Origin: an uncultured cyanobacterium
GTDB lineage: Bacteria > Cyanobacteriota > Cyanobacteriia > PCC-9006 > JAAUQQ01
Length of the DNA stretch: 64,000 bases
Assembly: GCA_963718615.1 (NCBI GenBank)
Contig: OY970368.1
Location: forward strand, 3,347,973 to 3,411,972
Direction: 5' to 3'
How positions within the stretch are numbered: the stretch's first letter is position 1; every line of letters begins with the position of its first letter. The notes beneath the pieces were generated by a model. That model did not search any database and was not told the origin of the DNA. It saw nothing but the letters and a program-made list of their open reading frames with translations. The position numbers and the translations under genes are program-made. Shown piece after piece: positions 8,329-46,543 of the stretch.

Positions 8329-8378
8329 GGTGTTGAGCTTGCTTCTCCTCCTGGAGAAAAGGGTGGATGCTTAAAAGT

Positions 8379-8411: not shown

Positions 8412-8505
8412 GCTGAAAAGAGGTTTCGAAAGAAGGTTAAAAATGAGTTTCAGTGGGGCATTCTAGCAACTTTTAAATTTTGAATTGAAAAGGCAGAGTT
8501 TTTCC

Positions 8506-22918: not shown

Positions 22919-22934
22919 GCCGAACCTTGGGTTG

Positions 22935-22980
22935 GTCTTACAGCCTTTAGTCTTACAGCCTTTGGTCTTACAGCCTTTGG
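22935..22980. repeat. Intergenic tandem repeat, 3 copies of a 15-bp unit (gtcttacagccttt[ag])
   Basis: Read directly in the lptA-like/lptB spacer. Confidence 0.8.
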
Positions 22981-23071
22981 TTTCACTGCATAAAGCGAAG
23001 CAATTCAACCGAAGAGTCCACTAGATACCTCTTTAGCGTCCCGTTCAGCCTATTCCCGTTCAGCTCAGGAG

Positions 23072-30934: not shown

Positions 30935-32002
30935 ATGGGCTCATCCAATCCGACGGCAGCGCTGGAAACCCTTCAGTCAGAACTCTCTACCCTTATTGCT
31001 CAATTACCGTCCTTAGAACATGGCAAGCTGATTAAGCGTGTTCTAGAAAGCCTCTTGGTGATGGCCCAGGAAGACCTAGAACGCCTGGATTGGAAAATTT
31101 TGCTGGGCTCTTTGCAAGACATGGAGCGAGCCTTCACGCTGTTTTCGCCCTATCGACATATTCGCAAAATTGCGGTGTTTGGTTCAGCGCGAACGCCAAA
31201 GACGGACCCGGATTATCCGATGGCGGTTGAGTTTTCTCGCCGGATGGCGGAGCAAGGCTTCATGATTATGACGGGTGCAGGGGGGGGGATCATGGAGGCA
31301 GCGAATGAAGGGGCGGGGCGATCGCAATCCTTTGGGCTCAATGTCCAACTCCCCTTCGAGCAAAGCGCCAATCCCTTTATCAAAGGGGATAATAAGCTTC
31401 TGCAATTTAAATACTTTTTCACCCGCAAACTCTTTTTTCTGCGGGAAACCGATGCAGTCGCGGCCTTCCCTGGTGGTTATGGCACCATGGATGAACTCTA
31501 TGAATGTTTAACCCTGGTGCAAACGGGAAAATTTGGACCAGCACCGCTCATTTTGGTTGATCGACCGGGTGGAGATTATTGGCAGGAGTGGGAGAAATTT
31601 AGTAAGGATCAGCTTCTTCTAAAAGGACTCATTAGTCCTGAAGATCCTTGCCTATATACGATTACGGATCAAGTCGAAGTTGCCTGTCGAGTTATCTCTG
31701 ATTTCTATCGTGTTTACCATTCTAGTCGCTATGTTGGACCCTTGTTTATCATGCGGCTCAAGGCTGAACTAACGGATGAAGATGTAGAGTTTCTGAATCA
31801 TTCATTCAAAGATATTTTAGTCACCGATCGGATTGAAAAAACTCAAGCCCTGCCGGAAGAGGCCGCCGATGAAACCGTTGGCATGCCGCGCCTTAAGTTT
31901 CACTATAATCAGCGAGATACGGGACGTCTTTATCAACTGATTGCAGAAGTGAATCGATTGGGTGTCAAGTCCCTAGGTGAAGCTCACCCAGAGCAAAAAT
32001 AA
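30935..32002 (+). CDS. LOG-family protein (lysine-decarboxylase-like fold, long form)
   Basis: 'IAVFGSART', 'TGAGGGIMEAANEGA' and 'PGGYGTMDELYE' motifs. Confidence 0.8.
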   Translation: MGSSNPTAALETLQSELSTLIAQLPSLEHGKLIKRVLESLLVMAQEDLERLDWKILLGSLQDMERAFTLFSPYRHIRKIAVFGSARTPKTDPDYPMAVEFSRRMAEQGFMIMTGAGGGIMEAANEGAGRSQSFGLNVQLPFEQSANPFIKGDNKLLQFKYFFTRKLFFLRETDAVAAFPGGYGTMDELYECLTLVQTGKFGPAPLILVDRPGGDYWQEWEKFSKDQLLLKGLISPEDPCLYTITDQVEVACRVISDFYRVYHSSRYVGPLFIMRLKAELTDEDVEFLNHSFKDILVTDRIEKTQALPEEAADETVGMPRLKFHYNQRDTGRLYQLIAEVNRLGVKSLGEAHPEQK

Positions 32003-32311
32003 TTTGATTATCGCATCCTAAGAAGAGTCAATGTTCCAATTTTATAGCATTGACTTTGTGGGCCTAATGATTGCTCTCGACCTTGACTCCAATACAGTTC
32101 TTGGCCCAGTAAATTAATATTGTCTAAAGTTATTCGTGATCATTTTACCAACAGCTTTCTTACGTATTTGAGACAGCTTTATCGATAAATTGGGAAAACT
32201 AGAAGCTAAGCACTACACGATTTAATTTTCTGTTTCTCGGAAAATCGAGGATCTTTATCAGGGTTGCATTTGCTGTACTCCCGTCAGGAAAGTCTACCAG
32301 GACTGTGTCTC

Positions 32312-34924
32312 ATGAGTTACGGCCATGTTTCCGATCTAGCATCTCCTAGGAGCCAGCCAGGTCGGGATGCTGCATCCAATTCTCACCCGACCGACCCGAT
32401 GTCTTCAGGTTGGTCTGAGTTTCAGCATCTGTTCCTAACGCTGAATGAAAGCGATGGCTTTTCTCAGCTTAAACTCGTCTTGGAGAGTATGGATGATGCC
32501 ATTGTTTTGCTTAATGCTCAGAGAGCACTCCTCTTTGTCAACTCAGCCGCTAATCATCTTTTAGGAGATGGGGTGCATAGCTTTGTGCAACAAGATTGGG
32601 CAATTAGGTTAAGCGAGCTCTATGGAGCCCAAAAGTCTGCCCCAATCTCTTTGTCTGCTCAATCTTTTCTAGAGTCTACAGATTCTTCCTCCCTTTCAGA
32701 GGCAAAACCTAGAGTCTTTAAAATTTATAGCACGGATGAGCCCGAGCAATGGATCACAGTTGTTGAACGTCCTCTCCATAATCCTCAACAGCAGTTGCTT
32801 GGCAGTTTAATTATTTGCCGTGATATCAGTGAACATAAGCGGGTTGAGGAAAAGCTGTTACATGATGCTTTCCATGACAAGCTAACGGGATTGCCCAATC
32901 GCAATCTACTACTCAAGCAGTTGGAACGGGCGATCGCCACTACTCAACAATCCTCTAAATATCAATTTTCTGTTTTATTTTTAGATCTTGATCGGTTTAA
33001 GGTCATTAATGATAGCCTTGGTCCCATAGTTGGAGACCAACTACTGATTGCAGTAGCACAACGACTGAAACGTTGCCTAAGGGTAGAAGATATAATTGTG
33101 CGCTTAGGCGGTGACGAATTTGCAATTTTGTTGAATGATATCAAAGATATCAACTATAGTCAGCAGGTTGCTGATCGAGTCAACCAAGAGCTAGTCTTAC
33201 CCTTTAATCTGAATGGACATGAAGTGTTCGCGGATGTCAGTATTGGCATTGCGACTGGTGCCCAGGGGTATGAAAAACCAGAAGAAATTTTGCGGGATGC
33301 AGACATTGCAATGCACCATGCTAAAGAACTGGGAAAATCCTGTTATCAGTTCTTTGATAAAGCGATGCATATCGATGCAGTCAAGCTGCTTCAGCTTGAA
33401 AACGATATTCGTCGAGCAGTTGATCGGAAGGAATTTCAAGTTCACTACCAACCGATCATCTCACTGCACAGCGAGGAAATTGCAGGATTTGAAGCGTTAG
33501 CTCGCTGGCGACATCCTCAACAAGGATTTATTCCTCCCTCAGAATTTATTCCCGTTGCAGAAGAAACAGGTTTAATCATTCCCCTAGGACTTTGGGTTTT
33601 ACAGGAAAGCTGTTGGCAGATGAAAGTCTGGCAACTTCAGTTTCCTGAGGCGCACCAATGGACAATCAGCGTCAACATCTCCGGTCGTCAGTTGATGAAG
33701 CCACACTTTGTGGAGCATGTAAAGCATATCTTAGCTGACACAAATCTCTCTTCTAAAAACCTAAAGCTGGAAATTACTGAGAGTGTTTTACTAAATAGTA
33801 ATCAAGAGGTTACTTATATCCTAAAACAGCTTCAATCAATTGGTATTCAGCTTGCAATGGATGACTTTGGCACTGGATATTCTTCGATGAGCTATCTCTT
33901 AGATTTTCCATTTAATACGCTTAAAATTGATCGATCATTTATTAAGAGCATGGAAGGGTCTAGGAAAAAACTAGGCATTGTTCGTTCCATTATTAACATG
34001 TCAAGCAATTTAGATATGAATGTCATTGCTGAGGGTGTTGAAACTATGGGACATCTGGCTCAGCTCAAAGTTTTAAAGTGTGGCTATGGTCAGGGACATT
34101 TCTTTGCTAAAGCATTAGACTCTCAATCTGCTGAAGGGTTTATTATTTCTGAGCTTGCAAAAGTTGGAAGTAATCGTTATTCCGATCTTGAGATGTCGGT
34201 TGAAGAACTGCGATCTCGAGAACAACTACTTCTACAAATCGAAAGCCTTCAACAGGAATTAAACGAAATTAAGCAAGAGAAAGTCGATCTTGAAATTTTA
34301 TTGGAAACAGCCACAGAACATGCGAGCATTGTCGAACTAGAATTAGAGCAAGAGATTTTCGACTATCAGAAAAACGAAGAGGCTCTTCAAAAAGCCAATC
34401 GTGAACTAGAAAATTTATCTAGCCTAGATAGCCTAACTCAGTTGGCAAATCGCCGTCGTTTTGATGAATATATCAGAGAACAATGGGATATCTTAGGTCA
34501 ACAAAACAAGCCACTCTCGCTTATTCTTTTGGATGTTGACTACTTTAAAAATTATAACGACCATTATGGACATCAAGCTGGAGATAACTGCCTCATTCAA
34601 GTTGCCCAAGTGATGATGCAATCTGTCAAAAGTTCTCAGGATTTAACGGCTCGATATGGTGGCGAAGAATTCGCAGTGATTATGCCTAATACAGGGGCAG
34701 GAAGTGCAATTAGAACTGCTGAGCAAATCCGCATCACATTAAAATCTCGCCAAATTTCTCATGCCGGATCTCTAGTTGGTGAACATGTTACAGTCAGTCT
34801 TGGTATTGTTAGTTTAGTACCAACCGCAACGGGCAAACCAAATGCACTGATTGACTTAGCTGATCGCGCACTCTATGAAGCTAAGTCTCAAGGGCGTGAT
34901 CGGTTTATCTTATTTTCAAGCTAA
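32312..34924 (+). CDS. PAS-GGDEF-EAL-GGDEF signalling protein (diguanylate cyclase/phosphodiesterase)
   Basis: First GGDEF 'RLGGDEFAIL', EAL domain 'FEALARWRHPQQGFIPPSEFIPVAEETGLI', coiled coil, second GGDEF 'YGGEEFAVIMP'. ATG at 32312; ORF track starts at TTG 32264. Confidence 0.85.
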   Translation: MSYGHVSDLASPRSQPGRDAASNSHPTDPMSSGWSEFQHLFLTLNESDGFSQLKLVLESMDDAIVLLNAQRALLFVNSAANHLLGDGVHSFVQQDWAIRLSELYGAQKSAPISLSAQSFLESTDSSSLSEAKPRVFKIYSTDEPEQWITVVERPLHNPQQQLLGSLIICRDISEHKRVEEKLLHDAFHDKLTGLPNRNLLLKQLERAIATTQQSSKYQFSVLFLDLDRFKVINDSLGPIVGDQLLIAVAQRLKRCLRVEDIIVRLGGDEFAILLNDIKDINYSQQVADRVNQELVLPFNLNGHEVFADVSIGIATGAQGYEKPEEILRDADIAMHHAKELGKSCYQFFDKAMHIDAVKLLQLENDIRRAVDRKEFQVHYQPIISLHSEEIAGFEALARWRHPQQGFIPPSEFIPVAEETGLIIPLGLWVLQESCWQMKVWQLQFPEAHQWTISVNISGRQLMKPHFVEHVKHILADTNLSSKNLKLEITESVLLNSNQEVTYILKQLQSIGIQLAMDDFGTGYSSMSYLLDFPFNTLKIDRSFIKSMEGSRKKLGIVRSIINMSSNLDMNVIAEGVETMGHLAQLKVLKCGYGQGHFFAKALDSQSAEGFIISELAKVGSNRYSDLEMSVEELRSREQLLLQIESLQQELNEIKQEKVDLEILLETATEHASIVELELEQEIFDYQKNEEALQKANRELENLSSLDSLTQLANRRRFDEYIREQWDILGQQNKPLSLILLDVDYFKNYNDHYGHQAGDNCLIQVAQVMMQSVKSSQDLTARYGGEEFAVIMPNTGAGSAIRTAEQIRITLKSRQISHAGSLVGEHVTVSLGIVSLVPTATGKPNALIDLADRALYEAKSQGRDRFILFSS

Positions 34925-35231
34925 ATTAGTAAAACTATCTTTTCAAAGAGATACCTTTTAATAACATTTTGATGGACTGTATGAGTGCAAAACTAAATCA
35001 TTAAAAATTGAGAAAGCTATTTACTTCTCTACAGACAATTATTAATCAATGCCTTTGGGTCTGATGAACGACATCTACTGGTGCGAATATATCGAGAATT
35101 TAAAAAGAAAAAACTAGATTTATAGGCTCACAAGGCATTGGCAAGGCATTAGCAATGTCTTACCTCCAAAAAGCATAGACTCGACAACCTCCCAAATATT
35201 CTAAACAGCCAATAAAGAGAAGAAAAAACTT

Positions 35232-35627
35232 TTATTGTATTTCTAGTTTCAGGCTTGGCATCAAACGTTGTAAATTCTTTAGAGATTTACCCTGCCAAGG
35301 AATCTCTTCGTTACCTAGCACAGTTAATTGAACTGTTTTACGCTTCCTAATGTTGATTACAAACTTAGATAATAAGCTAATTCCCAAGCTATTTAGGAAC
35401 TGGAGCGAGCGTAAGTCAATTATAATTAGAGACGACTCTTGGTCTGCCATGGCTTCTAACATAGAGATAATTTGTTGATAATCAGGCTCACTGCCTTGAA
35501 ATCTCATCGAGCCTTCCAGTCGGATAGTTGCTTGATTAGAATCGTAAAAGACACAATATTTTTCATGGGAAATTTTCATATGTAATACTTCTTTGAATGG
35601 AGATTGAGAACTAGGCATGATATTCAA
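35232..35627 (-). CDS. STAS-domain protein (anti-sigma-factor-antagonist / SpoIIAA-RsbV-like)
   Basis: 'IIDLRSLQFLNSLGISLL' resembles the SpoIIAA phospho-serine region (DLSxVxF[MI]DSSGLG); last gene of the minus-strand operon. Confidence 0.5.
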   Translation of the reverse strand: MNIMPSSQSPFKEVLHMKISHEKYCVFYDSNQATIRLEGSMRFQGSEPDYQQIISMLEAMADQESSLIIIDLRSLQFLNSLGISLLSKFVINIRKRKTVQLTVLGNEEIPWQGKSLKNLQRLMPSLKLEIQ

Positions 35628-35695
35628 AAAATGTGAAGCAGAAAGGATCGTTAACAGCTTTAAAGATGACCAAATCGAACAGTAGTCCTATAAGT

Positions 35696-36295
35696 CTAAA
35701 TAGCTAGTTGTACCATAGTCGTAACCGTTATACTATCCTGACTAGTCGACTCATATTCAAACTTCCAGCCTAACTTTGCCGAATAGTCATTTAGCATAGT
35801 AAGTAGACCCAGCCCAGAATCAATATGATTTTCAGCATTTCTTTCGAGCTGACGAATATAAAGCTCTTCTGGATCTGAATTGACAACCTCTTCAATATAG
35901 CGTTGGAAACTTAAAACTGAATGCGGATTGATACTGTTTTTGATAAAGAAGATAATTTTGTCGACATCAAAGCAGAGACGAATTTGCGTATAGTCTACTT
36001 GGTTTTTATAACTAAACTTCATCGCATTTTCCAATAGCTCGTTGGCAATGAAGCTTACTGCATCTTTAATTTCAGCTTGTTTTTTCTGAGCCGCAAGATC
36101 TTCGTCCTTAATTGGTAAACAAGTTACAAGATAATCAGCGAGGAAATCAGCAGATATACCATTATTGCGCCATCTTTTCCTAGGAGGAGCACTACTAGGT
36201 GTGAAATGCAAAACTAGCTGCTCTCTGCAAGGAGGTAAGGCATCAATAAAATCACCAAACGTTGTAGCTGTTGGTATTATATTTCTGATAGTCAT
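35696..36295 (-). CDS. GHKL-type ATPase, anti-sigma-factor-like serine kinase (RsbW/SiaB-like)
   Basis: N-box-like 'ANELLENAMKFS' and G-box-like 'DSGLGL'; about 200 aa with no HisKA domain; adjacent to the STAS gene. Confidence 0.5.
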   Translation of the reverse strand: MTIRNIIPTATTFGDFIDALPPCREQLVLHFTPSSAPPRKRWRNNGISADFLADYLVTCLPIKDEDLAAQKKQAEIKDAVSFIANELLENAMKFSYKNQVDYTQIRLCFDVDKIIFFIKNSINPHSVLSFQRYIEEVVNSDPEELYIRQLERNAENHIDSGLGLLTMLNDYSAKLGWKFEYESTSQDSITVTTMVQLAI

Positions 36296-36323
36296 TGTTT
36301 TTCCTCGGAGTAGTTAATTAGTT

Positions 36324-38126
36324 TCAGTTTTTACGTTTAATAACTAAAAGTGTAATGTCATCGTAAATTTTACTATTGTCGATATGATCGTATAAGTCCT
36401 TAATTACAGTATCCTTAATTTCTAAAGCTGATTGATGACGGCATTGATTGATGCGATCGCACATTCGTTCCAGACCATACAACTTTCCCTCTTTACTCTC
36501 CGCTTCTGTAACACCATCAGTATAAAGAACAATAACGTCTCCTGGATGAATATAAACCTCGGTTTGATCAATAAAATCAAGAATCTCCTCTTCAAGTCCA
36601 ATGGGAAAACCCAAATCAACTGTACTAATTTGATTAATTTTTCCAGATTGAGTAAAGATTAATACTTCCTCATGCTGTCCACTTATCTTTAAACGCCCCT
36701 CATTATAGTCAACTAGCATCAACGTCAGATTTTTATCAGTTTCCATCCTCTTAATGTTGTGAAATATGGTTCGATTAACAACATCAAGAATTCGATTTTG
36801 TTCCGTTTCTCCATTCTCAATCAATGTTCGAATTGTGGTCTGGACCATTAACATTAACACGCCACTTTCTAGGCCGTGTCCCGTTACGTCTCCTATACCA
36901 ATCCGAATAGAGTCTCCATAGCAAATCACGTCATAATAATCTCCTCCAACTTCTTCCGCAGGCGTCATAAATCCTGCAATTTCCAGATCCTCAATTTTGG
37001 CAAGCTCTTTTTCTTTTGGAAGGATCATTTGCTGTAACTTTTGTGTGATTTCTAATTCAGCATTTAGTCGTGTATTTTCTTGTTCTAGCTTTTGATTTAA
37101 TGTTGTAATTTCATGATTAGCTTGTGCAAGTTGGTCGAGATATGAAGTTTCTTGATCTCGTAATCTTTTCTTCTCAAGACAAGCATCTACACGTGCTTTG
37201 AGTAAAACTGGATTAAAGGGCTTTGCTAGATAGTCTTCTGCCCCCATTTCAATGCATTTAACGACACTATCAATTTCGTCTAAAGATGAAATCATAATTA
37301 CAGGTAAATATCGCCAATCGCTGTTTCTTAGCCATTTTAATACCTGATATCCATTAATCTCTGGCATAATAACATCGAGCAACACTAAATCAAAGCTGCC
37401 TGACGTAATTGCTTGAATTGCTTCTAATCCACTCGAAACTTCTGTTTTCTGATGCCCTTGTCGCTGAACATATCGACTTAGTAAATCTCGATTGACAGCG
37501 TTGTTATCAACAATCAAAATATGAGATTTATAACTTAGATCAGACTTGTGTTCAGTATCTTTATTCTTAGAATGACAGTTTATTTCTTGTCTGTAGTCGG
37601 ATAGAGAAGGCGAGAAGTCTGAAATATTTTCTTGTTGCTTTTGAGTCGAAAACTTTAATGGCATTGTAACTGAGCTTTGTTGGATCAAGTCTTGAAAGAG
37701 ACAAGCTGCAACTTCTATTTTCTCAACATCAGCCCTGAAGGATTTAGGTGCTAAAGGTTTAAGATTTTGGCACTTTTCCAGCAATGGCTGAGCCAAAGGC
37801 TGCAACCGTGCTCGAACCCAATGTTTTGCACAATTCGATATCTCAAAAGCTATATTTTCGTCAATGACAAACTCATCTTGCAATGATTCTATCGTTAAAC
37901 CGCGACCAATATAGGATACTAAATGTTTGTTCTTTAGTGAGATCTCATGTAACTGTGACGATAGGATTTGGATATCTTGCAGATCAACTGATTCTTCCAA
38001 CTCCTCTATTAATAGCTCACTGTAGCCTTGAATTGCATTTAAAGGCGTATAAAGCTCATGTCTAAAATGAGCAATCCATGAGCTATAGTCTATTAGTTCA
38101 GCATCTAATGCTTGAGACACATTCAT
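36324..38126 (-). CDS. HisKA-like / receiver / PP2C (SpoIIE-type) phosphatase fusion protein
   Basis: N-terminal H-box 'HELYTPLNAIQGYSELL' with no ATPase domain; REC domain ('ILIVDNN...DLVLLDVIMPEINGY...MISS...KP'); coiled coil; C-terminal PP2C ('GGDYYD...GIGDVTGHGLESG...LYTDGVTEA'). Confidence 0.8.
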   Translation of the reverse strand: MNVSQALDAELIDYSSWIAHFRHELYTPLNAIQGYSELLIEELEESVDLQDIQILSSQLHEISLKNKHLVSYIGRGLTIESLQDEFVIDENIAFEISNCAKHWVRARLQPLAQPLLEKCQNLKPLAPKSFRADVEKIEVAACLFQDLIQQSSVTMPLKFSTQKQQENISDFSPSLSDYRQEINCHSKNKDTEHKSDLSYKSHILIVDNNAVNRDLLSRYVQRQGHQKTEVSSGLEAIQAITSGSFDLVLLDVIMPEINGYQVLKWLRNSDWRYLPVIMISSLDEIDSVVKCIEMGAEDYLAKPFNPVLLKARVDACLEKKRLRDQETSYLDQLAQANHEITTLNQKLEQENTRLNAELEITQKLQQMILPKEKELAKIEDLEIAGFMTPAEEVGGDYYDVICYGDSIRIGIGDVTGHGLESGVLMLMVQTTIRTLIENGETEQNRILDVVNRTIFHNIKRMETDKNLTLMLVDYNEGRLKISGQHEEVLIFTQSGKINQISTVDLGFPIGLEEEILDFIDQTEVYIHPGDVIVLYTDGVTEAESKEGKLYGLERMCDRINQCRHQSALEIKDTVIKDLYDHIDNSKIYDDITLLVIKRKN

Positions 38127-38128
38127 AG

Positions 38129-38515
38129 CTACTCGTTTGAATAGGGCTGCGTTTTTTTGAGCAATGCTTCGATTTTACTAATCAGGCGTTTTAGATCTAC
38201 TGGCTTAGTATCATAGTCATCACAACCGGCTTCTAGTGCCTTTTCGCGATCGCCTGACATTGCATGAGCAGTTAATGCAATAATCGGAATAGATTGAGTT
38301 TGAGGATTAAATTTAATATAACGCGTTGCTTCCCATCCATCTAAAATAGGTAAGCTCATATCCATTAAGACTAAGTCAGGTTTTTCTGCAATACTCATTG
38401 TCACACCTTGGGCCCCATCGGAAGCAATTGCAACCTCGTAGCCACGTCGACTTAATCGTCGAGACAGCATATCTTGATTCATTTCGTTGTCTTCAACCAG
38501 AAGTAGCTTTACCAT
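38129..38515 (-). CDS. Single-domain response regulator (CheY-like receiver)
   Basis: 'LLLVEDNEMNQDM...DLVLMDMSLPILDGWEA...ALTAHAM...KP'. Start placed at the ATG giving 'MVKLLLVED'; ORF track extends to 38560. Confidence 0.8.
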   Translation of the reverse strand: MVKLLLVEDNEMNQDMLSRRLSRRGYEVAIASDGAQGVTMSIAEKPDLVLMDMSLPILDGWEATRYIKFNPQTQSIPIIALTAHAMSGDREKALEAGCDDYDTKPVDLKRLISKIEALLKKTQPYSNE

Positions 38516-38576
38516 AAATTTAAAGGTCAAAATTCTTAAAAAGATTAGGGAAATAGGCAAAAGTTTAAATCTCCAA

Positions 38577-41054
38577 CTAAGATATATATGGTATTAGTAA
38601 TTGAGAGTTTTCTTTTAACCTTTCCTGTCTTTCTATTGCTTTTAATAATAGATCTTTTAATGTTGAAAGGAGAATCTTGCTTTCGCATAAATCTTTAATT
38701 AAAATTTCCTCAACTTGTCCTTGCAAACTTTGACGTTCAATGAAAGTTAGATCTTTAGCAGTCATTAAGATAACTGGGATTGCATCATAGAGACTATCCT
38801 GCCGTAAAGCCTGTAAAAACTCAAAACCATTCATTTTAGGCATCAAAAGATCTAATATAATTAAATTAGGATAGAAACCTGAATTTAATAGATGAAGACC
38901 TTCTATACCATTTTCAGCCGTTTTGACTATCCAACCTGCTGGTTCAAGTTGATGCGTTAATAAGTCTCGAATGATAGGATCGTCATCAATGAGCAGGATT
39001 TCTCGATTTTCTCCCTCTTGACAACAGCGTTGTAAAACCTCATATAGTCTTTGACGATCTATTGGCTTTGTTAAATATTCTGAGGCACCGAGCGCATATC
39101 CTCGACTCTGATCGTTTACAAAACTCATCATAATAACAGGAACCTCAGCTAGTTCTGAGTCGCTCTTAATCTGACTTAAAACAGACCAACCATCAATATC
39201 AGGCAAAATTACATCCAAGGTAATTGCCTGAGGACGGATTTCCCGAGCTAATCGTAGGCCCTCACTTCCTGTCGTAACAGTTTGTACAGCAAATCCCTGT
39301 TTAACAAGAAAACGACGCATAATGTCGTGAACGGCTAGATCATCATCTATGACTAATATCGTTTTTTGTAAGTTAGGCTTTGAAAAGTCTTCGTTTTCCT
39401 GGACAACACTTAAATTATTTTTATGGATATCAACCTTTCTAGGTAGTTGAATTATAAATGTGGAACCCTCTCTCAATTGACTGTCTACTTTAATGCTTCC
39501 TCCCATCATTAAACAGAACTCCTTAGTAATTGCTAATCCAAGTCCTGTTCCTCCATACTTACGGGTAGTAGAAGCATCTGCTTGAGAAAATGCTTGAAAT
39601 AACTTATTTTGCTGCTCAATCGTCATTCCAATACCCGTATCTCGAACTTTAAATAGAATCAAGTTTTGATCACTATCTTGATCCTCGACGATTTCTAAAT
39701 AAATTTTTCCACAACTTGTAAACTTACTTGCATTGCTCAGTAAGTTTAGTAAGCATTGGCGAATTTTAGTTAGATCAGCATACATTTCGCCAATATCGAC
39801 AGCACATTCTATAATCAACTGATTTTGCTGTTTATCTATTAATGGATGTACTGTTGTAACGACGTCCTCTATTAAATCTTGAATTGAAAAAGTTTCTAAG
39901 TAAACTTCCATTCGGCCTGCTTCTATTTTAGATAAATCTAAAATATCGTTGATCAGACCTAGCAAATGCTTTCCCGCACTATGAATTTTAACTAAATCTG
40001 GGACAAAATCTTCTTCGCCTAAATCAAGCGCCTCTTCATGCAGCATCTCACTGTATCCAATAATTGCATTAAGTGGTGTTCGTAGCTCATGACTCATATT
40101 GGCAAGAAACATACTCTTCGCCTGATTTGCCTCTTCTGCAGCGGCTTTTGCCTCACGAGCTTCTTCAATGCTATCCGCTAACTCTGTAGTTCGCTGAATG
40201 ACCTTCTGTTCTAGAGTTCGATTATAGTCTGCTAAATCTTCTTTTGCCTTTTCCAAGTCAATTTGGCTACTTTCTAGAGCTTCTGTTTTATTTTGAATCA
40301 TGCTAGCCATTTGATCAAACGCACGGGAAATTGTTGCGAGTTCATCAGACCCCTTGAGCTGAGCACGCACACTTAAGATTCCCTCTGATAATAAGTTACT
40401 GGCTGAGACTAACCTGGCAGCACGTCGAGTTAAGACCTCTTCAAAAAAGAACCAAACTGCTATACAAAGAAGGGTAAGAACAAAGGTGGATTCTAGCGAT
40501 CGCTTTAAAGCATCTCCATAGGTCTGTTGGCGTAGGCGCTTTAAGTCATAATCTAGGAACAAAATACCAATTTTTGAGGGTAATATTTCGCCTGGATCTG
40601 ACTTGAAAGCAACTGGATATAGGGCTTGAATAGATTGATGATCTGGACTGATTAAAACTTCACCTGCCTGCATTTGACGAATTTTTTCTATCTTTACATG
40701 GAGTTGATCTGCGGGAGTTTCTTCAATTGAAAGACCCTTGAGAAGCTGAGATGTCGTTAGAAGTACCTTATTTTGATCATCGAAGAGAATCGCAGACTTT
40801 AATTCAACTTCGTCTTCTAACTGACTGATCATAAGAGCAGCACCATCCCCGCTGACGCGACGATACAAGTATTCCAAGATACCAGAGGTATGGTCGCCCA
40901 TAAATCTGACGTAGTTGCTTACATTTTGCTCATTGCGACGATGAGCGAGGTATACTTCACGCCGAAATGAGTAAAAGCTAGAAAAACTACCTAAGATTAG
41001 TAAAATTAACGGAATTGAAAGGCGTAGGGGTGGTGGAAACCGCTTTGACATCAT
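38577..41054 (-). CDS. Hybrid sensor histidine kinase (periplasmic sensor region, TM, HisKA, HATPase_c, two C-terminal REC domains)
   Basis: H-box '[19 protein letters not shown]', G-boxes 'RDTGIGM' and 'GGTGLGLAI', then two receiver domains; N-terminal 180-aa region lies between two hydrophobic segments. Confidence 0.85.
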
Positions 41055-41092
41055 CAGCTCCTAAGAAAGGACAAACAACAATCGTTGTTTGA

Positions 41093-42121
41093 CTAAGGAC
41101 GAATACTTTTGATGACGCTGTCGTCCATCAGTAGAGTTGGATCAACTGTCTTTTTCAATAAACCGTTCTGTTTCATAATTGTTACAAGATGTTTTGAGCT
41201 TTGTACTAAAGTAGATTCTTGACTTCCTAATAGAGTTTTATTTTCTTCTAGACTCGGGACTCTTACTCCTTTTAAGGATGCTAAGAAGTCTGTAGACGAC
41301 ATATTGTAATCAGCAGCCAAGAGTTCAGCAGATTTTTGAGGATTTGCTTCTAGATATTCTTGAGCCTTAAACCATCCTTCCAGTAGGTGTTTTAGATTAC
41401 GATGTTGATTTTTGAGCGTCTCTGTATGCACACCCAGAACATCGACAATCTCTCCAGGAATCTGGCTACTATCAAATAGGTGATTTGCACCTTCCGTAAC
41501 CAGTCGAGAGCTCATCGGTTCATAGGTCACTAATCCATCAACCTTGTCTTTTTTAAAGGCTTGACCATGTTCGAAGGTTGCCAAAGGGACGATTTGCAAA
41601 TCCTTAGTTGAAAGATTTACGGTTTCTAGAGCTCGGGTTAGAAGAAACGCACCTAATCCTGATGATTCAACGCCGACTCGCTTCCCTGATAGTTCCTTTA
41701 AACTGGAAATGTCAGGCTTGCCTAAAATCGCATCGGCTCCATGGGAGCTGTCAATAACTAAGACAAAGCGCATATCCTGCATGACCTCAGCGATTGGCAT
41801 TGCATCGTTCATCGTCAATGCAACGGCGTCAAGTTCACCATTTCGAAAGGCTTTGAACATTGCACTATTGGAAGAATAGGTTGTTAGGTTGGCAACATTA
41901 GAATCGTAATACTTTAAGTCCTTTGCAAGATAAAAGCTTGCATATCCTGGCCAAACAACAACACCTATCCTGATAGGATTTTCTCCAATTTGAATACAGG
42001 ACGGCAAAGAAACGGTACAGAACAAAGAAACGAGAAGAAGGGAAATCCATTGAACTTTCAATTGAGAAGCAAACAACTTGATACAAGACAAAGTTTTTGC
42101 TTTCAAGAGACTTAGATCCAT
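41093..42121 (-). CDS. Periplasmic substrate-binding protein (NMT1/SsuA/TauA-like fold)
   Basis: Hydrophobic N-terminus, then 'IRIGVVVWPGYASFYLAKD' and overall class-II SBP layout; no ABC permease or ATPase nearby. Confidence 0.65.
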   Translation of the reverse strand: MDLSLLKAKTLSCIKLFASQLKVQWISLLLVSLFCTVSLPSCIQIGENPIRIGVVVWPGYASFYLAKDLKYYDSNVANLTTYSSNSAMFKAFRNGELDAVALTMNDAMPIAEVMQDMRFVLVIDSSHGADAILGKPDISSLKELSGKRVGVESSGLGAFLLTRALETVNLSTKDLQIVPLATFEHGQAFKKDKVDGLVTYEPMSSRLVTEGANHLFDSSQIPGEIVDVLGVHTETLKNQHRNLKHLLEGWFKAQEYLEANPQKSAELLAADYNMSSTDFLASLKGVRVPSLEENKTLLGSQESTLVQSSKHLVTIMKQNGLLKKTVDPTLLMDDSVIKSIRP

Positions 42122-42174
42122 GACTCAATACCTCAAAAATAAAGAGAAAAACTATATTGGTTTATTAATGAAAC

Positions 42175-43227
42175 CTATTGGTTAGACGCTAGTGCTTCAA
42201 TAAGATGATTGTCAATCAATTCTTCTAGTGGATAAATCTTTTGAAGATGGTGACTTTGTGCCAATTCTTCTTGAAGCTTATGTACACATTTTTCTAACCA
42301 TGATTCTTTGAGAGAGAGCATCCTTGCATTTTCCTCTAAAGTATATTCATGAATTCCTTGCATTGCTTTGAAAAGTTCTTTACTCATTAGCTTATTGCGA
42401 GCAAAAATTATTTTAGCCGCATCTTGAGGCTTGTTTCTGTAGTATTCTTGTGCTTTAAACCAACCGTTTATGAGCTCTTGAAGAGCTAATTTATAGCTTT
42501 CTATTGAATCATCTCGAACCAACAAAACATCAACGATCTCGTTCAGCATTTGATGACTACTAAAGACTTCTTGAGCTCCTTCTGCTATTAGCTGAGAAAG
42601 AATTGGTTCATAGGTGATAATCGTAGAAACTGATGACTGACGGAATGAATTAATTTGATCATTCAGATCAAGGGGAACAACCTGAATATCCTCTATCGTC
42701 AGTCCTGCCAGATCGAGTAGACGTGTGAGCATTAAGGTTCCCCGGCTCGAAGCTTCTATAGCAACAGTTTGTTTTTTTAATTCATAGAGAGATTTTATAG
42801 GATTTCGAGTAATAACAGCATCTGCCCCACAGGAACTACTCAAGATCAAGACAATTTTGAGATGCGGATCTGTATCTGAAAGAAGCAAAGCATCTCCCAA
42901 TGAAAGCAGTAATCCGTCAAGTTGCTGATTGCGAAAGGCACGATTTTTATCTTCAACGGTAGGATAATTAATCAGCCTAATATCTTGTTGATCGTAATAG
43001 CCTAAACGTTGAGCAAGATAAACGTTGTTATAAGAAAGGCCAGTAGTTGTTCCAATTCTGAGAGGAGCTGCATTCGAGGTGCAACTCACAAAGGCTAGAC
43101 TAATAGCGCTAATGAGTCCAACCAAAAGCGTCTTGAAGCGATGTTTTTTGGGAACCGGCGATCGCCAAGCGGAATATATTCTATTGATCAATCTAATTGA
43201 TCTAAGTGGTAGAGAACGGCGCATCAC
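42175..43227 (-). CDS. Periplasmic substrate-binding protein, paralogue of 41093..42121
   Basis: Same layout, with 'LLEGWFKAQEYLEANPQ' in one and 'LINGWFKAQEYYRNKPQ' in the other; first gene of the operon. Confidence 0.65.
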   Translation of the reverse strand: MMRRSLPLRSIRLINRIYSAWRSPVPKKHRFKTLLVGLISAISLAFVSCTSNAAPLRIGTTTGLSYNNVYLAQRLGYYDQQDIRLINYPTVEDKNRAFRNQQLDGLLLSLGDALLLSDTDPHLKIVLILSSSCGADAVITRNPIKSLYELKKQTVAIEASSRGTLMLTRLLDLAGLTIEDIQVVPLDLNDQINSFRQSSVSTIITYEPILSQLIAEGAQEVFSSHQMLNEIVDVLLVRDDSIESYKLALQELINGWFKAQEYYRNKPQDAAKIIFARNKLMSKELFKAMQGIHEYTLEENARMLSLKESWLEKCVHKLQEELAQSHHLQKIYPLEELIDNHLIEALASNQ

Positions 43228-43676
43228 CTTTACTTACCCAACAAACTGCTGGAAATTGACTCATTATCCTTTTGACCCATTAATCGCCTTTAACTCCGTC
43301 TCTGTTTTATAGAAAAGCGGTTTATCTACGGCTTTGGATAGGATGTCCTTCAGTATGCCCAGCGAGATTTTAAAACCGACAAAATTTGATTAGTCCGTAA
43401 AACCTAGGAAGCACTTGAGTCATGATTCTCTAGGAAACCGTGTTTTTACTCAATTCTCCTTAGTCAGGGTTATCTATGCTAGATATGTAGATCTTGTCTA
43501 TGGGCTTCATCTCTATTACTTAGAAGCTGTCTGCTTAAATGTTATCCGTCTTGTCGTTTTCCATCTTGATTGCTATCTAGCGTTGATCACTCAGTTGATT
43601 CATCAAGTTGGTACACTCAATTAGTACGTCGCCATTCTCATCCATCATTCTTGTACGTTGTAGAGTTTTGAACACA

Positions 43677-44900
43677 ATGAAATCCTCTGTGCATAGGCTG
43701 AATGACATTACCCAGCATGAAATTGAGGCACTCAAACATGAATATAATATGTCTGATGCTCATACACATCAATCTCAGTCTCCAAGCCAGAGGAAAATTG
43801 TAGAGCGTCTACCACAGCTTTGGTTTGACGCAGAGAATAAGCGACAACATGAGTTAGAGCAATGCTTCTTAGAAAATTTCTTTCGGGTACAGGGACGACC
43901 TTGGGCGCTTAAAAATAAGCTTCCTATGCTGGTCTATTCAGCTTCAATTGCAATGGCAATTACTGCAAACTACCTGCTTAAGAAAAAGCTGACTGTAAGT
44001 TTAATTCATCCATGTTTTGACAACTTGGTCGATCTGATGAAAAACATGCAGGTTCCACTTCAAGCACTTGAAGAGGAATGGCTGTATGATCCCGAAATGA
44101 TCTATGAGAATCTCGAAAAGAATGTCAAGAGTGACGCTATCTTCTTGGTTGATCCTAACAATCCATCTGGATTTACGCTATATCAGCAAGGAATAGTCGG
44201 TTGGCAAGAGCTAATCCGGTTTGCGAAAGAAAACAAAAAGTTGCTGATTTTTGACTTTTGCTTTGCAGCTTTCATGCTGAATAACAAAAATCTACAGCTC
44301 TTCGACATTTATGAAATGTTGGAGACTTCTGGTGTAAGCTATATTGCGATGGAGGATACGGGTAAGACTTGGCCGCTACAAGATGCTAAGGTTGCTATGC
44401 TTAAAAGCAGTGCTGATCTTTACGCGGATATCTACAATCTTTATACTGCTTATCTTCTGAACGTATCACCTTTTATACTGAATATCGTAACTCAGTATAT
44501 TCTTGATTCTGAAAAAGATAAATTTGCATCAGTGCACGGTTTGCTGAGCCGCAATCGTGCGATCGCTGAAGGAATTCTCAAAGATTCTATTTTAGAACCA
44601 ATGACTCCTTTGGTGAATGTTAGTGTGATGTGGTGTCGAATCAACAGTGAACAGATTCAATCTAGTCAGCTCAAGACTTACTTGACAGAATTTGACATTC
44701 ACATTTTACCTGGAACTTTCTTTTTCTGGAATTCACCCCAGCGCGGCGAACGCTTTATTCGCTTGGCTTTAGCGCGTAATACTGAAACTTTCGAACCTGC
44801 CGTACGAGCCCTTCGAGATGCTGTTGACCAATACGAAGTTTTCCTCTCCGCTCAGAAAACTCAGCGGGATTTATGCTCCCCTAGTAACGCCCTTTTATAA
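43677..44900 (+). CDS. PLP-dependent aminotransferase-fold protein
   Basis: 'LVDPNNPSGF' and a candidate PLP-lysine in 'MEDTGKTW'. Start placed at the ATG giving 'MKSSVHRL'; ORF track begins at TTG 43608. Confidence 0.6.
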   Translation: MKSSVHRLNDITQHEIEALKHEYNMSDAHTHQSQSPSQRKIVERLPQLWFDAENKRQHELEQCFLENFFRVQGRPWALKNKLPMLVYSASIAMAITANYLLKKKLTVSLIHPCFDNLVDLMKNMQVPLQALEEEWLYDPEMIYENLEKNVKSDAIFLVDPNNPSGFTLYQQGIVGWQELIRFAKENKKLLIFDFCFAAFMLNNKNLQLFDIYEMLETSGVSYIAMEDTGKTWPLQDAKVAMLKSSADLYADIYNLYTAYLLNVSPFILNIVTQYILDSEKDKFASVHGLLSRNRAIAEGILKDSILEPMTPLVNVSVMWCRINSEQIQSSQLKTYLTEFDIHILPGTFFFWNSPQRGERFIRLALARNTETFEPAVRALRDAVDQYEVFLSAQKTQRDLCSPSNALL

Positions 44901-45672
44901 GGGACAGTTTGATCAAGACTCACTCTATCGCCTGATGGATACGATTGAGCCCTTTGCAGAGGGATTTGTACCCTGTTTGAGTTCTGGCGAAGGTCAGTTT
45001 CTTTCCCTCTCAACTTGGCAGAATGTTATCCAGGCAACGCGTCAATATACTCAGAAGGTAGTTATTGCGGGGATCAAACGTGAAACTCTACAAGAGACAA
45101 TAGCGTTAGGTAAACTGGCACAACAGTTGGGTTGTGATGCCATTATTGTGCCGGTACCTGTCTCAGATGATAGGGTTACCGTTGGTTACTTCAATCAAAT
45201 TACCGCTGCGATCGCCCTACCCATTGTTATCTATAATACGGAAAGCCATTCTATTCAATCACTAGATGGTTTAAGGCAACTGGAGAGCTTACCTCAAATC
45301 ATTGCTATTAAGGATTCTTCCATGAATGAAGAATTTTTTAAGCTCCTTTGTAATTTGAGAACTCAAGCGCAGCTCCGTCTTTCGGTTCTACAGGGATTTG
45401 AACATCTTTTGCAAGTCCCCCCTGGTTGTGATGGCTATCTCATTGCCTTGGCAAATCTTGAACCAGAGCTTTGCCATCGAATGTTGCTTGAAAATTCTGA
45501 TGTGATCAATAGTGAAATTCTAGATTGCTTTTGGCGTTATAACCTGGGTGCTGATTGGTTTGTGAGTATGAAGGCAATTTTGATGGCTCGCCAAGTCATT
45601 CGCTCTGCGGAACAAGTTAATCTAATGGTTCAACCCGATCTTAAATCGGTTCCTAATTTGGCGATCGCATAG
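44818..45672 (+). CDS. DapA/NAL-family (class I aldolase, dihydrodipicolinate-synthase-like) protein
   Basis: 'GIYAPLVTPF' N-terminal motif and 'IIAIKDSS' candidate Schiff-base lysine. Overlaps the preceding gene by 83 bp; true start may be a non-ATG codon further in. Confidence 0.65.
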   Translation: MLLTNTKFSSPLRKLSGIYAPLVTPFYKGQFDQDSLYRLMDTIEPFAEGFVPCLSSGEGQFLSLSTWQNVIQATRQYTQKVVIAGIKRETLQETIALGKLAQQLGCDAIIVPVPVSDDRVTVGYFNQITAAIALPIVIYNTESHSIQSLDGLRQLESLPQIIAIKDSSMNEEFFKLLCNLRTQAQLRLSVLQGFEHLLQVPPGCDGYLIALANLEPELCHRMLLENSDVINSEILDCFWRYNLGADWFVSMKAILMARQVIRSAEQVNLMVQPDLKSVPNLAIA

Positions 45673-45984
45673 CCATCATCAAGCTTAACTAAGCATGCTT
45701 CCATCATTCCAATGATCGAGTGGATAAAAACAAGTTAACTGATTGCCTGCGATTTTTTTTATGAGTTGCAGGCTTTTTCGATATTTAATTTGATCAATAA
45801 CCCAATGCTGTGTAATTTACTTAAGCTTGAATGTTTTCAAATAAATTTGAAATTTTAGGCTACTTAGTCTGATATTGCTTTTGTTTTATTCATAAAAAGT
45901 TCGGATTGTATCTATGAACTAGGAAGATGGAAATAGAGATGGCTATCACGGTTATTTCTTGCTTATCTTCATTGCTTTATTTCT

Positions 45985-46485
45985 ATGTTGGGCTGGATCT
46001 TCTTGGCTTTTGCAGTTTGTTTGGATGTTCTGGGCACATTTGCTGCAAAATATGCGAATGGGTTTACAACACTGATTCCATCACTCATTACTATTGGGGC
46101 CTATTGTTTATCATTTACAGCGTTGACCTTTTCGATCAAAACACTCGATGTCAGCGTGGCTTATCCGGTTTGGACTGGCTCTGCAATCTTTTTAGTGGCT
46201 GTTTTAGGGGCTGTATTCTTCCACGAAACGGTCAATTTCTTTAAAGTCTTTTCAACACTTTTGGTCGTCTTTGGCATCGTTGGCTTAGTGGTTAGTAGCC
46301 AGCCCGATGCAGCGGCTTGTCCGCCGGAGGTAGAACAAACTCAGCACCTACTCCAGAGCAGTAATCGCCCAAGGCTGTCCATGTCTCCTGTCTTTCATCG
46401 ATTAGGCACACCTGTACTCTATGCAACTGTTAAGGGATACTCTGCCAACGTCATTCGTTTAAAGCCAGAGTTTTCTGAAAACTAA
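45985..46485 (+). CDS. SMR/DMT-like small membrane transporter with about 60-aa C-terminal extension
   Basis: Four TM helices in the first ~105 aa; hydrophilic tail follows. ATG start. Confidence 0.45.
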   Translation: MLGWIFLAFAVCLDVLGTFAAKYANGFTTLIPSLITIGAYCLSFTALTFSIKTLDVSVAYPVWTGSAIFLVAVLGAVFFHETVNFFKVFSTLLVVFGIVGLVVSSQPDAAACPPEVEQTQHLLQSSNRPRLSMSPVFHRLGTPVLYATVKGYSANVIRLKPEFSEN

Positions 46486-46523
46486 GGATGGCAACGCAAT
46501 CTCGTGCTTAGGTTGCCATCCTT
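46484..46523. terminator. Hairpin with perfect 12-bp stem (aaggatggcaac / gttgccatcctt) and 16-nt loop, between convergent genes
   Basis: Starts at the stop codon of the 45985..46485 ORF. Confidence 0.5.
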
Positions 46524-46543
46524 GAGAGACTCAACAGGAAATT

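Follow-up and report, generated by a model that had tools for sequence, protein, structure and literature searches.

The stretch of chromosome analysed here (the window; 64 kb out of a 6.1-Mb chromosome) carries a block of DNA visibly richer in A and T than its surroundings, and the question it raises is whether this block consists of foreign genes or of native genes with a foreign-looking composition. A first-pass annotation had described an AT-rich island of about 14.5 kb, and the sliding-window GC and GC3, tetranucleotide and codon-usage analyses all bear this out, with an extent of about 14.7 kb. GC content is 0.392 within positions 32010-46530 against 0.531 across the remaining 49.5 kb of the window, and 1-kb windows range from 0.36 to 0.43 in the block and from 0.46 to 0.60 beyond it. 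GC3 per gene is 0.29-0.44 (mean 0.346) for the 11 block genes and 0.41-0.68 (mean 0.585) for 30 genes outside (Mann-Whitney p=1.5e-6). First and second codon positions differ as well (GC1 ~0.51 versus ~0.60, GC2 ~0.33 versus ~0.43), as does amino-acid usage, all having moved in proportion to GC3. The resulting GC1/GC2/GC3 values of ~0.51/0.33/0.33 are near the Muto-Osawa expectation for a genome of ~39% GC. The GC-normalised tetranucleotide correlation is r=0.59-0.63 between block and flank segments compared with 0.92-0.98 between flank segments, and delta* is 0.122 for the block, against 0.059 as the mean of the null. In composition and codon usage the island is real and statistically strong. 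The GC3 of the block lies ~0.24 below the flanks and 0.14-0.30 below the orthologues in relatives, with the exception of a gene at its edge, and varies internally, from 0.307 in a signalling operon through 0.355 in a GGDEF-EAL gene to 0.395 in an aminotransferase and DHDPS pair (p=1e-5).

The left edge had been placed just after the LOG gene, which is wrong. The GC3 change-point (maximum likelihood 31471, 2-lnL interval 31363-31534, that is ~170 bp or about ±90 bp) falls within the coding sequence of this LOG/TIGR00730-family gene (30935-32002, plus strand; Pfam Lysine_decarbox, LDcluster4), ~530 bp ahead of its stop codon. GC3 steps there from 0.585 to 0.357 (LRT 86), and the gene has a GC-normal 5' half and an AT-shifted 3' third. 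Sliding GC3 along LOG drops past codon ~180 in the window and does not drop in the LOG of four relatives, and the gene is at its most conserved around the step. The right edge is placed between 45657 and 47034 by GC3 change-point and is poorly resolved, because the gene for an SMR-family transporter of 166 aa (45985-46485, plus strand; PF00893) has a low GC3 in a relative too (0.44 in the window, 0.46 in L150, so no shift). The SMR gene probably lies at or past the right edge. The right flank is formed by pepA (leucyl aminopeptidase; 46587-48077, minus strand; Pfam Peptidase_M17), which is GC-normal, with a slightly lower GC3 of 0.47 over its final ~105 codons.

Inside the block, a PAS-GGDEF-EAL-GGDEF gene (32264-34924, plus strand, Pfam domains; GC 0.42, GC3 0.36; probable start at 32312, giving 870 aa) is convergent with a signalling operon. 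The last gene of this operon encodes a small STAS/SiaC-like protein (35232-35627, minus strand; STAS E=0.0013 and SiaC E=0.078, both short of the Pfam cut-offs). Upstream of it on the same strand lie genes for a DUF6272 protein that is a putative RsbW/SiaB-like kinase (35696-36295; PF19788 E=1.1e-6, HATPase_c_2 at E=0.12), a HisKA-like/REC/PP2C (SpoIIE) phosphatase (36324-38126; GC3 0.29), a single-domain response regulator (38129-38560; REC) and a hybrid histidine kinase (38577-41054; HAMP-HisKA-HATPase-REC-REC, GC3 0.29), all assigned by Pfam, followed by two paralogous NMT1-like periplasmic binding-protein genes (41093-42121 and 42175-43227; Pfam NMT1_2, NMT1). A class I/II aminotransferase gene (43608-44900) and a DHDPS-family gene overlapping it (44818-45672) occupy the plus strand, both recognised by Pfam, with a joint GC3 of 0.40.

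For each of the 11 block genes, the nearest sampled relatives, which are uncultured Pseudanabaenaceae-type MAGs, have an orthologue in the corresponding position, at a GC of roughly 0.46-0.58. LOG, which in relatives is placed after IMPDH-like and trx genes, is followed by the GGDEF-EAL orthologue in L001 and L083 at a GC of 0.52-0.55 (GC3 of the adjoining GGDEF-EAL orthologues 0.59-0.67). At the other end, L150 has the order pepA-SMR-DHDPS-aminotransferase-NMT1-NMT1-HK-REC-REC/PP2C-DUF6272-STAS, identical to that of the window, with block orthologues at GC 0.44-0.52 and 48-92% amino-acid identity. Its pepA, 76% identical, adjoins the equivalent block; its SMR protein likewise has 166 aa (73%), its aminotransferase and DHDPS genes (73% and 65%) overlap as well, and its NMT1-like pair (72% and 48%) keeps its order, while its hybrid kinase and response regulator are 68% and 92% identical. 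L151 has part of the same run. The DUF6272 orthologue is 66-67% identical in L150 and L151, and STAS/SiaC-like orthologues take the equivalent operon position in L150, L151, L152 and L084. In the outgroup L152 the operon and the GGDEF-EAL gene are convergent as in the window. The orthologous block of L150 and L151 itself lies ~5-8 GC points under its own flanks, with its density of HIP1 palindromes halved.

Database matches tell of the same neighbourhood. The best matches of the GGDEF-EAL protein are 59-66% identical, and those traced (L001, L081-L083) are on contigs that are rich in HIP1 and normal in GC, two of which share the flank synteny. The nearest homologues of the REC-PP2C phosphatase are 64-65% identical (L150, L151), followed by ~53% in Pleurocapsales-type cyanobacteria, and the best LOG matches (71-76%) come from the same MAG group as those of the two block proteins. 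A search with these two proteins against 5.8 billion proteins returned nothing above 66% identity besides the window's own copy; the lineage is poorly sampled, with a top LOG match of 76%. The signalling cluster is also widespread at ~50-53% identity in low-GC cyanobacteria (GC 0.37-0.38; L084-L086), whose source names include Pleurocapsa, Waterburya and Stanieria. The synteny comparison suggested in the first-pass annotation goes against an acquired block, by the condition that the annotation itself had named as refuting it: the closest sampled relatives have the same gene order at near-native GC, and LOG and pepA are adjacent in none of the relatives examined, so there is no empty site. Together, these comparisons show that ~31.47 kb to ~46 kb is a native chromosomal locus, holding a conserved cyanobacterial c-di-GMP/partner-switching signalling cluster, an aminotransferase-DHDPS pair and an edge SMR gene. 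The gene content is native and the composition alone is foreign-looking.

The HIP1 palindrome (GCGATCGC) occurs at eight sites in the block (32930, 36453, 38246, 40496, 43158, 44559, 45208 and 45661), six of which had been listed earlier. As had been judged by eye, it is sparser per kb inside (0.55 versus 1.52 outside), and relative to the expectation from base composition its enrichment is equally strong (observed/expected 105 in the block, 78 outside). Four of the eight sites match L150 sites at orthologous codon positions, including those in the response regulator (shared also with L151 and L152), in the hybrid kinase (nt 551), in the aminotransferase (nt 951) and in the DHDPS gene (nt 390); in the flanking pepA, two of three are kept. 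The sequence history of the block falls among HIP1-bearing cyanobacteria. The earlier suggestion of another cyanobacterium as donor is plausible for orthologous DNA from a fairly close relative, and not for new genes.

Relative depth was compared in the GGDEF-EAL gene, the sole block gene having relatives in common with a flank gene (LOG). The distance ratio d(window-L001)/d(L001-L083) is 1.32 for LOG and 1.30 for GGDEF-EAL, and with the few relatives compared we detected no excess divergence or altered topology of block genes versus flanks. Polarised changes number 138 on the window branch and 142 on the relative branch. On the window branch FYMINK residues show 51 gains and 23 losses, against 23 gains and 34 losses on the relative branch. 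Parsimony polarisation points to a block ancestor near host GC, and the AT shift is derived, having come about on the branch that leads to the window, and is not ancestral.

The explanation that we tentatively place first, with some reserve, is orthologous displacement in place: homologous recombination would have swapped the resident segment for its orthologue from a lower-GC, HIP1-bearing cyanobacterium, an unsampled sister of this lineage. Natural transformation is one way in which its DNA could have come in. One crossover would lie in the most conserved LOG stretch, around codons 143-200, and the other near the DHDPS/SMR/pepA end. The exchange would leave the genes, their order and their function as before, and the imported DNA would still fall short of host composition. 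Inferred cases of multi-gene allelic exchange by homologous recombination in cyanobacteria offer a precedent (PMC8995045). Several observations count for displacement: synteny and orthology at both ends, with gene order and position as in relatives; the same clade and relative depth as the flanks; an AT shift that the FYMINK bias marks as derived; the sharp left step within conserved LOG; the distinct tetranucleotide signature; and the retained HIP1 enrichment, with half of the sites orthologous. The codon-position GC values are as expected after long evolution in a genome of roughly 39% GC. Other points count against it. In the search with the two block proteins no donor lineage exceeding 66% identity was found, and given the normal divergence and congruence of the block, the donor would have to attach on or near this lineage's long branch, which is ad hoc. 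A donor sister to this lineage would leave no tree conflict, so the lack of conflict lowers the claim and does not remove it. With synonymous sites saturated, DNA of 39% GC should recombine only very inefficiently with DNA of 53% GC. On its right side the block lacks a sharp edge, GC3 is heterogeneous within it, and the view is limited to 64 kb of the chromosome.

Less likely, though still a serious contender, is a regionally confined AT shift in place, in which the block was inherited vertically and its local substitution equilibrium shifted to ~39% GC in this lineage alone. The region could have escaped GC-biased gene conversion or recombination, or AT-richness could have been selected locally, as could rare codons that keep signalling proteins scarce; under universal AT-biased mutation GC3 would fall to ~0.3 and amino-acid composition would follow. 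On the phylogenetic data this account is the most parsimonious, given that clade, relative depth and branch length match the flanks, and it fits the synteny kept at both ends, the unsampled donor and a retention of orthologous HIP1 sites equal to the pepA rate (4/8 versus 2/3). The block is already GC-poorer than its flanks in L150 and L151, and GC3 is graded within it and at its right edge. However, the left edge is a step within ~170 bp of a gene and not a ramp, the codon-position values resemble a long-equilibrated low-GC genome, and the GC-normalised tetranucleotide signature departs strongly from that of the host. We also know of no established mechanism for a 14-point GC (24-point GC3) drop over 14.7 kb of a bacterial chromosome, which counts against such a shift. 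If true, it would be far more novel than displacement.

It is improbable that the locus reflects an ancient acquisition with unequal amelioration, whereby the common ancestor took the cluster from a low-GC cyanobacterium, for example of Pleurocapsales type, after which GC climbed to the host level in the relatives and stayed behind in this lineage. The wide distribution of the cluster in low-GC cyanobacteria, the somewhat depressed GC of the block in L150 and L151, and the mildly GC-ward lean of substitutions on the relatives' branch would suit it. The window branch is nevertheless strongly AT-ward (51 versus 23), so that low GC is derived and not retained, and the boundary cuts LOG, whose 3' third is AT-shifted in the window only. 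A further point against this account is that synonymous sites are saturated between proteins 60-70% identical, so that GC3 shows the present equilibrium, not ancestry.

A classical genomic island, with foreign genes inserted between LOG and pepA, is rejected as highly improbable. Of the first-pass acquisition reading, the compositional island and the missing mobility genes stand and the acquired gene block does not. Atypical GC, codon usage and oligonucleotide signature and the sparser HIP1 sites speak for an insertion, but relatives have every one of the genes in the equivalent position at near-native GC, LOG and pepA adjoin in none of them, the left boundary falls within LOG, and the two block proteins searched have their closest homologues in the clade that also supplies those of the flanks, at matching distance ratios. 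Pfam scans of the 11 block genes and their neighbours found no integrase, transposase or conjugation domains, the 64-kb window has no tRNA, and the direct repeats flanking the block, at 65-86% identity, do not exceed chance level. For integrase, transposase, tRNA and repeats this is as the first-pass annotation had it. No related plasmid copy of the block was found. An assembly chimera, in which the 6.1-Mb contig jumps to a co-occurring low-GC relative in LOG and back near pepA, is just as hard to credit: the record may be a metagenome-derived assembly and the left step falls in the conserved stretch of LOG, where an assembler could switch genomes, but independent Logan contigs from run ERR12035938 bridge both junctions (13.7 kb spanning IMPDH to NMT1 and 26.1 kb spanning NMT1 via pepA to PmbA), which argues that the block is not an artefact, a double switch back to the same syntenic point is improbable, and ~30% nucleotide divergence makes long shared k-mers unlikely.

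Among known systems, the block resembles a classical genomic island or integrative element in being a ~15-kb low-GC stretch with atypical codons and a deviant oligonucleotide signature, and differs in having no integrase, tRNA target, direct repeats or empty site and in the orthology and synteny of its genes with those of relatives. O-antigen and capsule clusters are low-GC replacement loci at fixed slots between conserved flanking genes, and their gene content differs among strains. They share with the block an AT-richness that persists at a conserved slot and, if displacement is right, exchange via flanking homology, whereas the block has the same genes as its counterparts in relatives. Another parallel is the phycobilisome rod region of marine Synechococcus, for which multi-gene allelic exchange was inferred from gene-tree/species-tree conflict (PMC8995045). 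It is alike in that an atypical block lies between conserved genes with position, order and function unchanged, free of mobility genes, and exchange would in the present case, too, be among related cyanobacteria. In contrast, the anomaly here is purely compositional (minus 14 GC points), without a demonstrable donor allele or incongruence, and one boundary is resolved to within a gene while the other is poorly resolved. For the cargo of the block, as opposed to its AT-richness, the likeness is to SiaABCD, by which Pseudomonas aeruginosa controls a diguanylate cyclase through partner switching (PMC7647112, PMC8457831): a PP2C phosphatase (E=7.8e-38), a putative small kinase and a STAS/SiaC-like protein are encoded beside a GGDEF enzyme (E=2.4e-96), an adjacency that is kept in the outgroups L152 and L153. 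The differences are that a REC domain regulates the phosphatase here, with a hybrid histidine kinase and two NMT1-like binding proteins upstream of it, that the kinase candidate is a DUF6272 protein, that the SiaC match is sub-threshold, and that the enzyme is a composite PAS-GGDEF-EAL-GGDEF protein convergent with the operon.

The AT-rich block of the window is compositionally as distinct as the first-pass annotation had described it. Between 32010 and 46530 the GC content is 0.392, compared with 0.531 in the other 49.5 kb of the window, and all 1-kb windows inside the block lie at 0.36–0.43 compared with 0.46–0.60 outside. The use of A/T-ending codons is likewise confirmed, with GC3 values of 0.29–0.44 (mean 0.346) in the 11 block genes and 0.41–0.68 (mean 0.585) in the 30 genes outside, an almost complete separation at the gene level (Mann-Whitney p = 1.5e-6). 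The shift extends to GC1 (~0.51 vs ~0.60) and GC2 (~0.33 vs ~0.43), and to amino-acid usage, in which FYMINK residues are up and GARP residues down. For a genome of 39% GC, the Muto–Osawa relations give GC1, GC2 and GC3 of about 0.51, 0.37 and 0.34; the block is near this expectation, with GC2 somewhat below it, as is also seen in the orthologues. Weak expression or codon selection was considered as a cause and rejected, given that GC1, GC2 and amino-acid usage are shifted too and the step falls mid-gene. The GC-normalised tetranucleotide signature correlates between block and flanks at r = 0.59–0.63 and between flanks at r = 0.92–0.98. The dinucleotide delta* of 0.122 (null mean 0.059) is weak evidence alone, because one repetitive flank segment, holding a giant open reading frame (ORF), scores 0.127. 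The block is also uneven, with GC3 of 0.307 in a seven-gene operon, 0.355 in the GGDEF-EAL gene and 0.395 in the aminotransferase and DHDPS genes (p = 1e-5 and 0.009).

The giant ORF (133–8328, 2731 aa) includes a ~745-nt (~248-aa) unit repeated in tandem about seven times, at 61–83% identity, along with 99/198-nt sub-repeats; the repeats produce regular antisense ORFs, and the tetranucleotide signature of this segment is deviant (r = 0.57–0.66 vs other flank segments). Directly downstream is an ORF with leucine-rich and FG-GAP repeats (8485–10242), around which GC dips to 0.463 (8001–9000). A further dip, much weaker than the block, reaches 0.465 at 60001–61000, where the ORF at 59780–60367 has a GC3 of 0.41. 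The sole tandem array in the window with a period ≤500 and a score ≥80 is a 15-nt repeat, TTGGTCTTACAGCCT, at 22932–22981 (3.3 copies, 94% matches).

The block holds a GGDEF-EAL gene, a signalling operon, an aminotransferase/DHDPS-family pair and an SMR protein. A plus-strand PAS-GGDEF-EAL-GGDEF gene (32264–34924) is convergent with the minus-strand operon (35232–43227), which encodes two NMT1-like binding proteins, a HAMP hybrid histidine kinase (HK) with two REC domains, a REC protein, a HisKA-like/REC/PP2C phosphatase, a DUF6272 protein and a small STAS/SiaC-like protein. On the plus strand are the overlapping aminotransferase and DHDPS-family genes (overlap 44818–44900) and a 166-aa SMR-family protein (45985–46485). 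The flanks carry ordinary cyanobacterial genes, with psbA, tex, an IMPDH-like gene, trx and the TIGR00730-family gene LOG on the left and pepA (leucyl aminopeptidase), lipase-like, HerA-like and PmbA/TldD genes on the right. As called, the aminotransferase/DHDPS overlap is 83 nt in the window and 62 nt (3106–3167) in L150, a 37.8-kb contig from a relative; in a Logan gene call from a near-identical strain the starts lie later, without overlap, and the true starts are uncertain. The SMR protein has 166 aa in both the window and L150 (1463–1963) and continues ~55 residues beyond the 93-position SMR domain in a poorly conserved C-terminal tail (36–63% identity vs 77–97% in the domain).

The first-pass annotation took the block for an acquired island, and it is here that comparison with relatives leads elsewhere. 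The lineage is sparsely sampled, with 76% identity for the best LOG homologue in a search of 5.8 billion proteins, and the nearest species-representative genomes by LOG are uncultured Pseudanabaenaceae/Synechococcales MAGs at 71–74%. Relatives have a common left-flank order of Ser/Thr kinase, ABC permease, IMPDH-like gene, trx and LOG. In two of them, L001 and L083, LOG is followed by a full-length GGDEF-EAL orthologue (60–61% identity by tblastn, 63% by global alignment) with a GC of 0.52–0.55 and a GC3 of 0.59–0.67; these proteins and their kin P0001–P0006 are the best whole-database matches to the window's GGDEF-EAL protein (59–66%). L150 carries, in the order of the window, pepA (76% identity), SMR (73%), DHDPS (65%), aminotransferase (73%), two NMT1 genes (48% and 72%), HK (68%), REC (92%), REC/PP2C (64%), DUF6272 (67%) and STAS (61%), with GC of 0.44–0.52 and GC3 of 0.46–0.63 in these orthologous genes, and part of this arrangement recurs in another relative, L151. 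In the outgroup loci L152 and L153 (51–54% identity, genome GC 0.44), HK-REC-REC/PP2C-DUF6272-STAS and GGDEF-EAL are convergent, in precisely the layout of the window, whose gene arrangement therefore looks ancestral. In the relatives this order no longer holds: GGDEF-EAL and the STAS-like gene have been separated and have gained glyS, glgX or DUF2459 as neighbours. LOG adjacent to pepA, as an empty site would have it, was found in none of 80 genome loci and several Logan/ENA contigs of relatives. Since the orthologous order occurs at native composition in close relatives and LOG is never beside pepA there, the insertion reading fails on the first-pass annotation's own terms. The proposal of acquired foreign gene content thus falls, with the compositional observation behind it intact, and the comparisons show the block to be a native, orthologous and syntenic locus of which only the composition is aberrant.

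Within the clade (L001, L002, L081, L082, L083, L150 and L154), synteny breaks downstream of LOG. GGDEF-EAL is followed by glgX in L001 and L082 and by DUF2459-dynamin-like-Sll1247-murC in L081; DUF2459 comes directly after LOG in L154; an aminotransferase, a PatA-like protein and rplI follow LOG in L002; and STAS is followed by glyS in L150 and L151. The orthologous block in L150 (1463–13117) and L151 (1–5087) is 5–8 GC points below its own flanks (0.48–0.49 vs 0.54–0.55), and a milder AT tendency of the block may predate the split from these relatives. The cargo cluster is conserved in cyanobacteria (L152 6810–15427, L150 4858–13117 and the low-GC loci L084–L086), and among the loci compared only the window and L150 have its two NMT1-like genes. 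More than 100 REC-PP2C homologues share the same architecture at about 47–53% identity, the named ones mostly from Pleurocapsales-type cyanobacteria. Searched at the protein level, GGDEF-EAL and REC-PP2C have no match between 66% and 100% identity, a metagenome scan for a donor returned only relatives at ≤52% identity, and a plasmid search (blastn of 8 kb; tblastn) returned only generic REC/PP2C matches.

The left edge, annotated as just after LOG, is instead inside this gene (30935–32002). A change-point on third codon positions places it at 31471 (2-lnL interval 31363–31534; LRT 86), ~530 bp upstream of the stop codon, where GC3 falls from 0.585 to 0.357. In a codon alignment, the drop beyond codon ~180 occurs only in the window, with four relatives at 0.45–0.70 throughout, and the most conserved protein stretch of LOG ends at the step. 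The right edge, between 45657 and 47034, is poorly resolved because the GC3 of SMR is equally low in the window (0.44) and a relative (0.46). As annotated, the block lacks integrase or transposase domains (Pfam), tRNAs and meaningful flanking direct repeats; a search for att-like direct repeats and tRNAs found none. A 13.7-kb Logan contig (ERR12035938) encodes an identical LOG protein and reaches 2.5 kb into the GC-normal left flank and 11 kb into the block, and a second of 26.1 kb contains an identical SMR protein in the order NMT1b-aminotransferase-DHDPS-SMR-pepA-lipase-HerA-DUF389-PmbA. Both junctions are therefore bridged independently of the primary assembly.

The Kimura distance from the window to L001, relative to that between L001 and L083, is 1.32 for LOG and 1.30 for GGDEF-EAL, and the corresponding ratios for L083 are 1.17 and 1.28; this puts the branching point of the AT-shifted GGDEF-EAL gene level with that of the native flank gene. 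The block proteins are no farther from the outgroups than those of the relatives, and neither the C-terminal part of LOG nor GGDEF-EAL shows extra divergence compared with the native part, so this test does not distinguish between a segment imported from a sister lineage and one that drifted in place. With substitutions polarised by L152 (and L084 added for REC-PP2C), the changes are about equal on the window branch (138) and the relative branch (142), but FYMINK gains and losses are 51/23 on the former and 23/34 on the latter. This puts the origin of the low GC on the window's side of the tree and disfavours retention of an ancestral low-GC state.

Eight sites of the HIP1 octamer (GCGATCGC) lie inside the block. 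They are sparser there per kb, as had been noticed by eye (0.55 vs 1.52 per kb), but relative to base composition they are equally enriched (O/E 105 vs 78). In L150 and L151 the orthologous block has 0.69–0.79 per kb, about half the density of its flanks (1.5–1.9), so the sparsity mostly goes with the genes themselves. Half of the eight (38246, 40496, 44559 and 45208) are at exact orthologous codons in L150 (REC nt 307, HK nt 551, aminotransferase nt 951 and DHDPS nt 390), with one of the four conserved in L151 and L152 as well; in the flanking pepA a comparable two of three sites are common to L150. Synonymous sites around the shared octamers are down to a GC3 of about 0.3. At nt 2584 of GGDEF-EAL, five relatives have a conserved site that two synonymous changes have eroded to CGTGATCGG in the window. 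Positional conservation of HIP1 is known and has been attributed to selection (PMC5861425). Retention of half of the ancestral octamers while GC3 fell from ~0.55 to ~0.33 supports selection on these sites, and the block offers a natural test of it whether it was displaced or shifted in place.

We favour, at slightly less than even confidence, orthologous displacement in place as the source of the composition. The resident segment would have been swapped by homologous recombination for its orthologous counterpart from a sister lineage that is unsampled, lower in GC and HIP1-bearing, with one crossover inside the conserved core of LOG. The step-like boundary within a gene, the equilibrium-like GC1, GC2 and GC3 values and the deviant k-mer signature argue for it, and multi-gene allelic exchange has a precedent in cyanobacteria (PMC8995045). 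However, the searches found no donor, phylogenetic conflict is absent, and recombination between DNA so divergent is expected to be inefficient. On the phylogenetic data it is more parsimonious that vertically inherited functional genes, never exchanged, became AT-rich where they stand, a reading that also fits the graded GC3 inside the block. That would entail a local equilibrium of ~39% GC (GC3 about 0.31–0.40), confined to 14.7 kb of a 53% GC chromosome (49.5 kb seen), with selectively preserved HIP1 octamers, and it must account for an edge sharp to ~170 bp within a gene. We know of no mechanism for such a regionally confined shift, which itself speaks for displacement. Both readings fit the sequences compared; we rate displacement, just short of an even chance, above the in-place shift, which is possible but rather unlikely. 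Ancient acquisition with unequal amelioration is improbable. Classical insertion of foreign genes, for all the deviant composition, and an assembly chimera, with both junctions bridged, are each very improbable.

The block is a clean case against reading acquired gene content into every compositional island, given that GC, codon and k-mer detectors would flag it as foreign although each gene is the positional orthologue of a native one. If the segment was replaced, cyanobacteria can exchange orthologous DNA over ~15 kb despite a GC difference of 14 points, and an unsampled low-GC sister lineage would be indicated. If it shifted in place, it would be an uncommon example of GC evolution restricted to one region, through a regional change of the mutation, repair, gene-conversion or selection regime in a bacterial chromosome, and a handle on what maintains GC content; this would be much more novel than replacement. 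As to kind, we tentatively assign the case, with nearly even confidence, to the known class of replacement-type orthologous displacement. For the operon it carries, we infer a sensory pathway in which two periplasmic NMT1-like binding proteins would signal through the HAMP HK and the REC domains to a REC-gated PP2C, which would act on a partner-switch pair of a candidate DUF6272 kinase and the STAS/SiaC-like protein. Because the matches to SiaC (E = 0.078) and HATPase_c_2 (E = 0.12) are below the family thresholds, membership of the SiaABCD family is not established and the likeness is one of logic: in Pseudomonas aeruginosa the SiaABCD partner switch controls a diguanylate cyclase (PMC7647112, PMC8457831), and here a GGDEF-EAL enzyme is the conserved neighbour of a putative partner switch.
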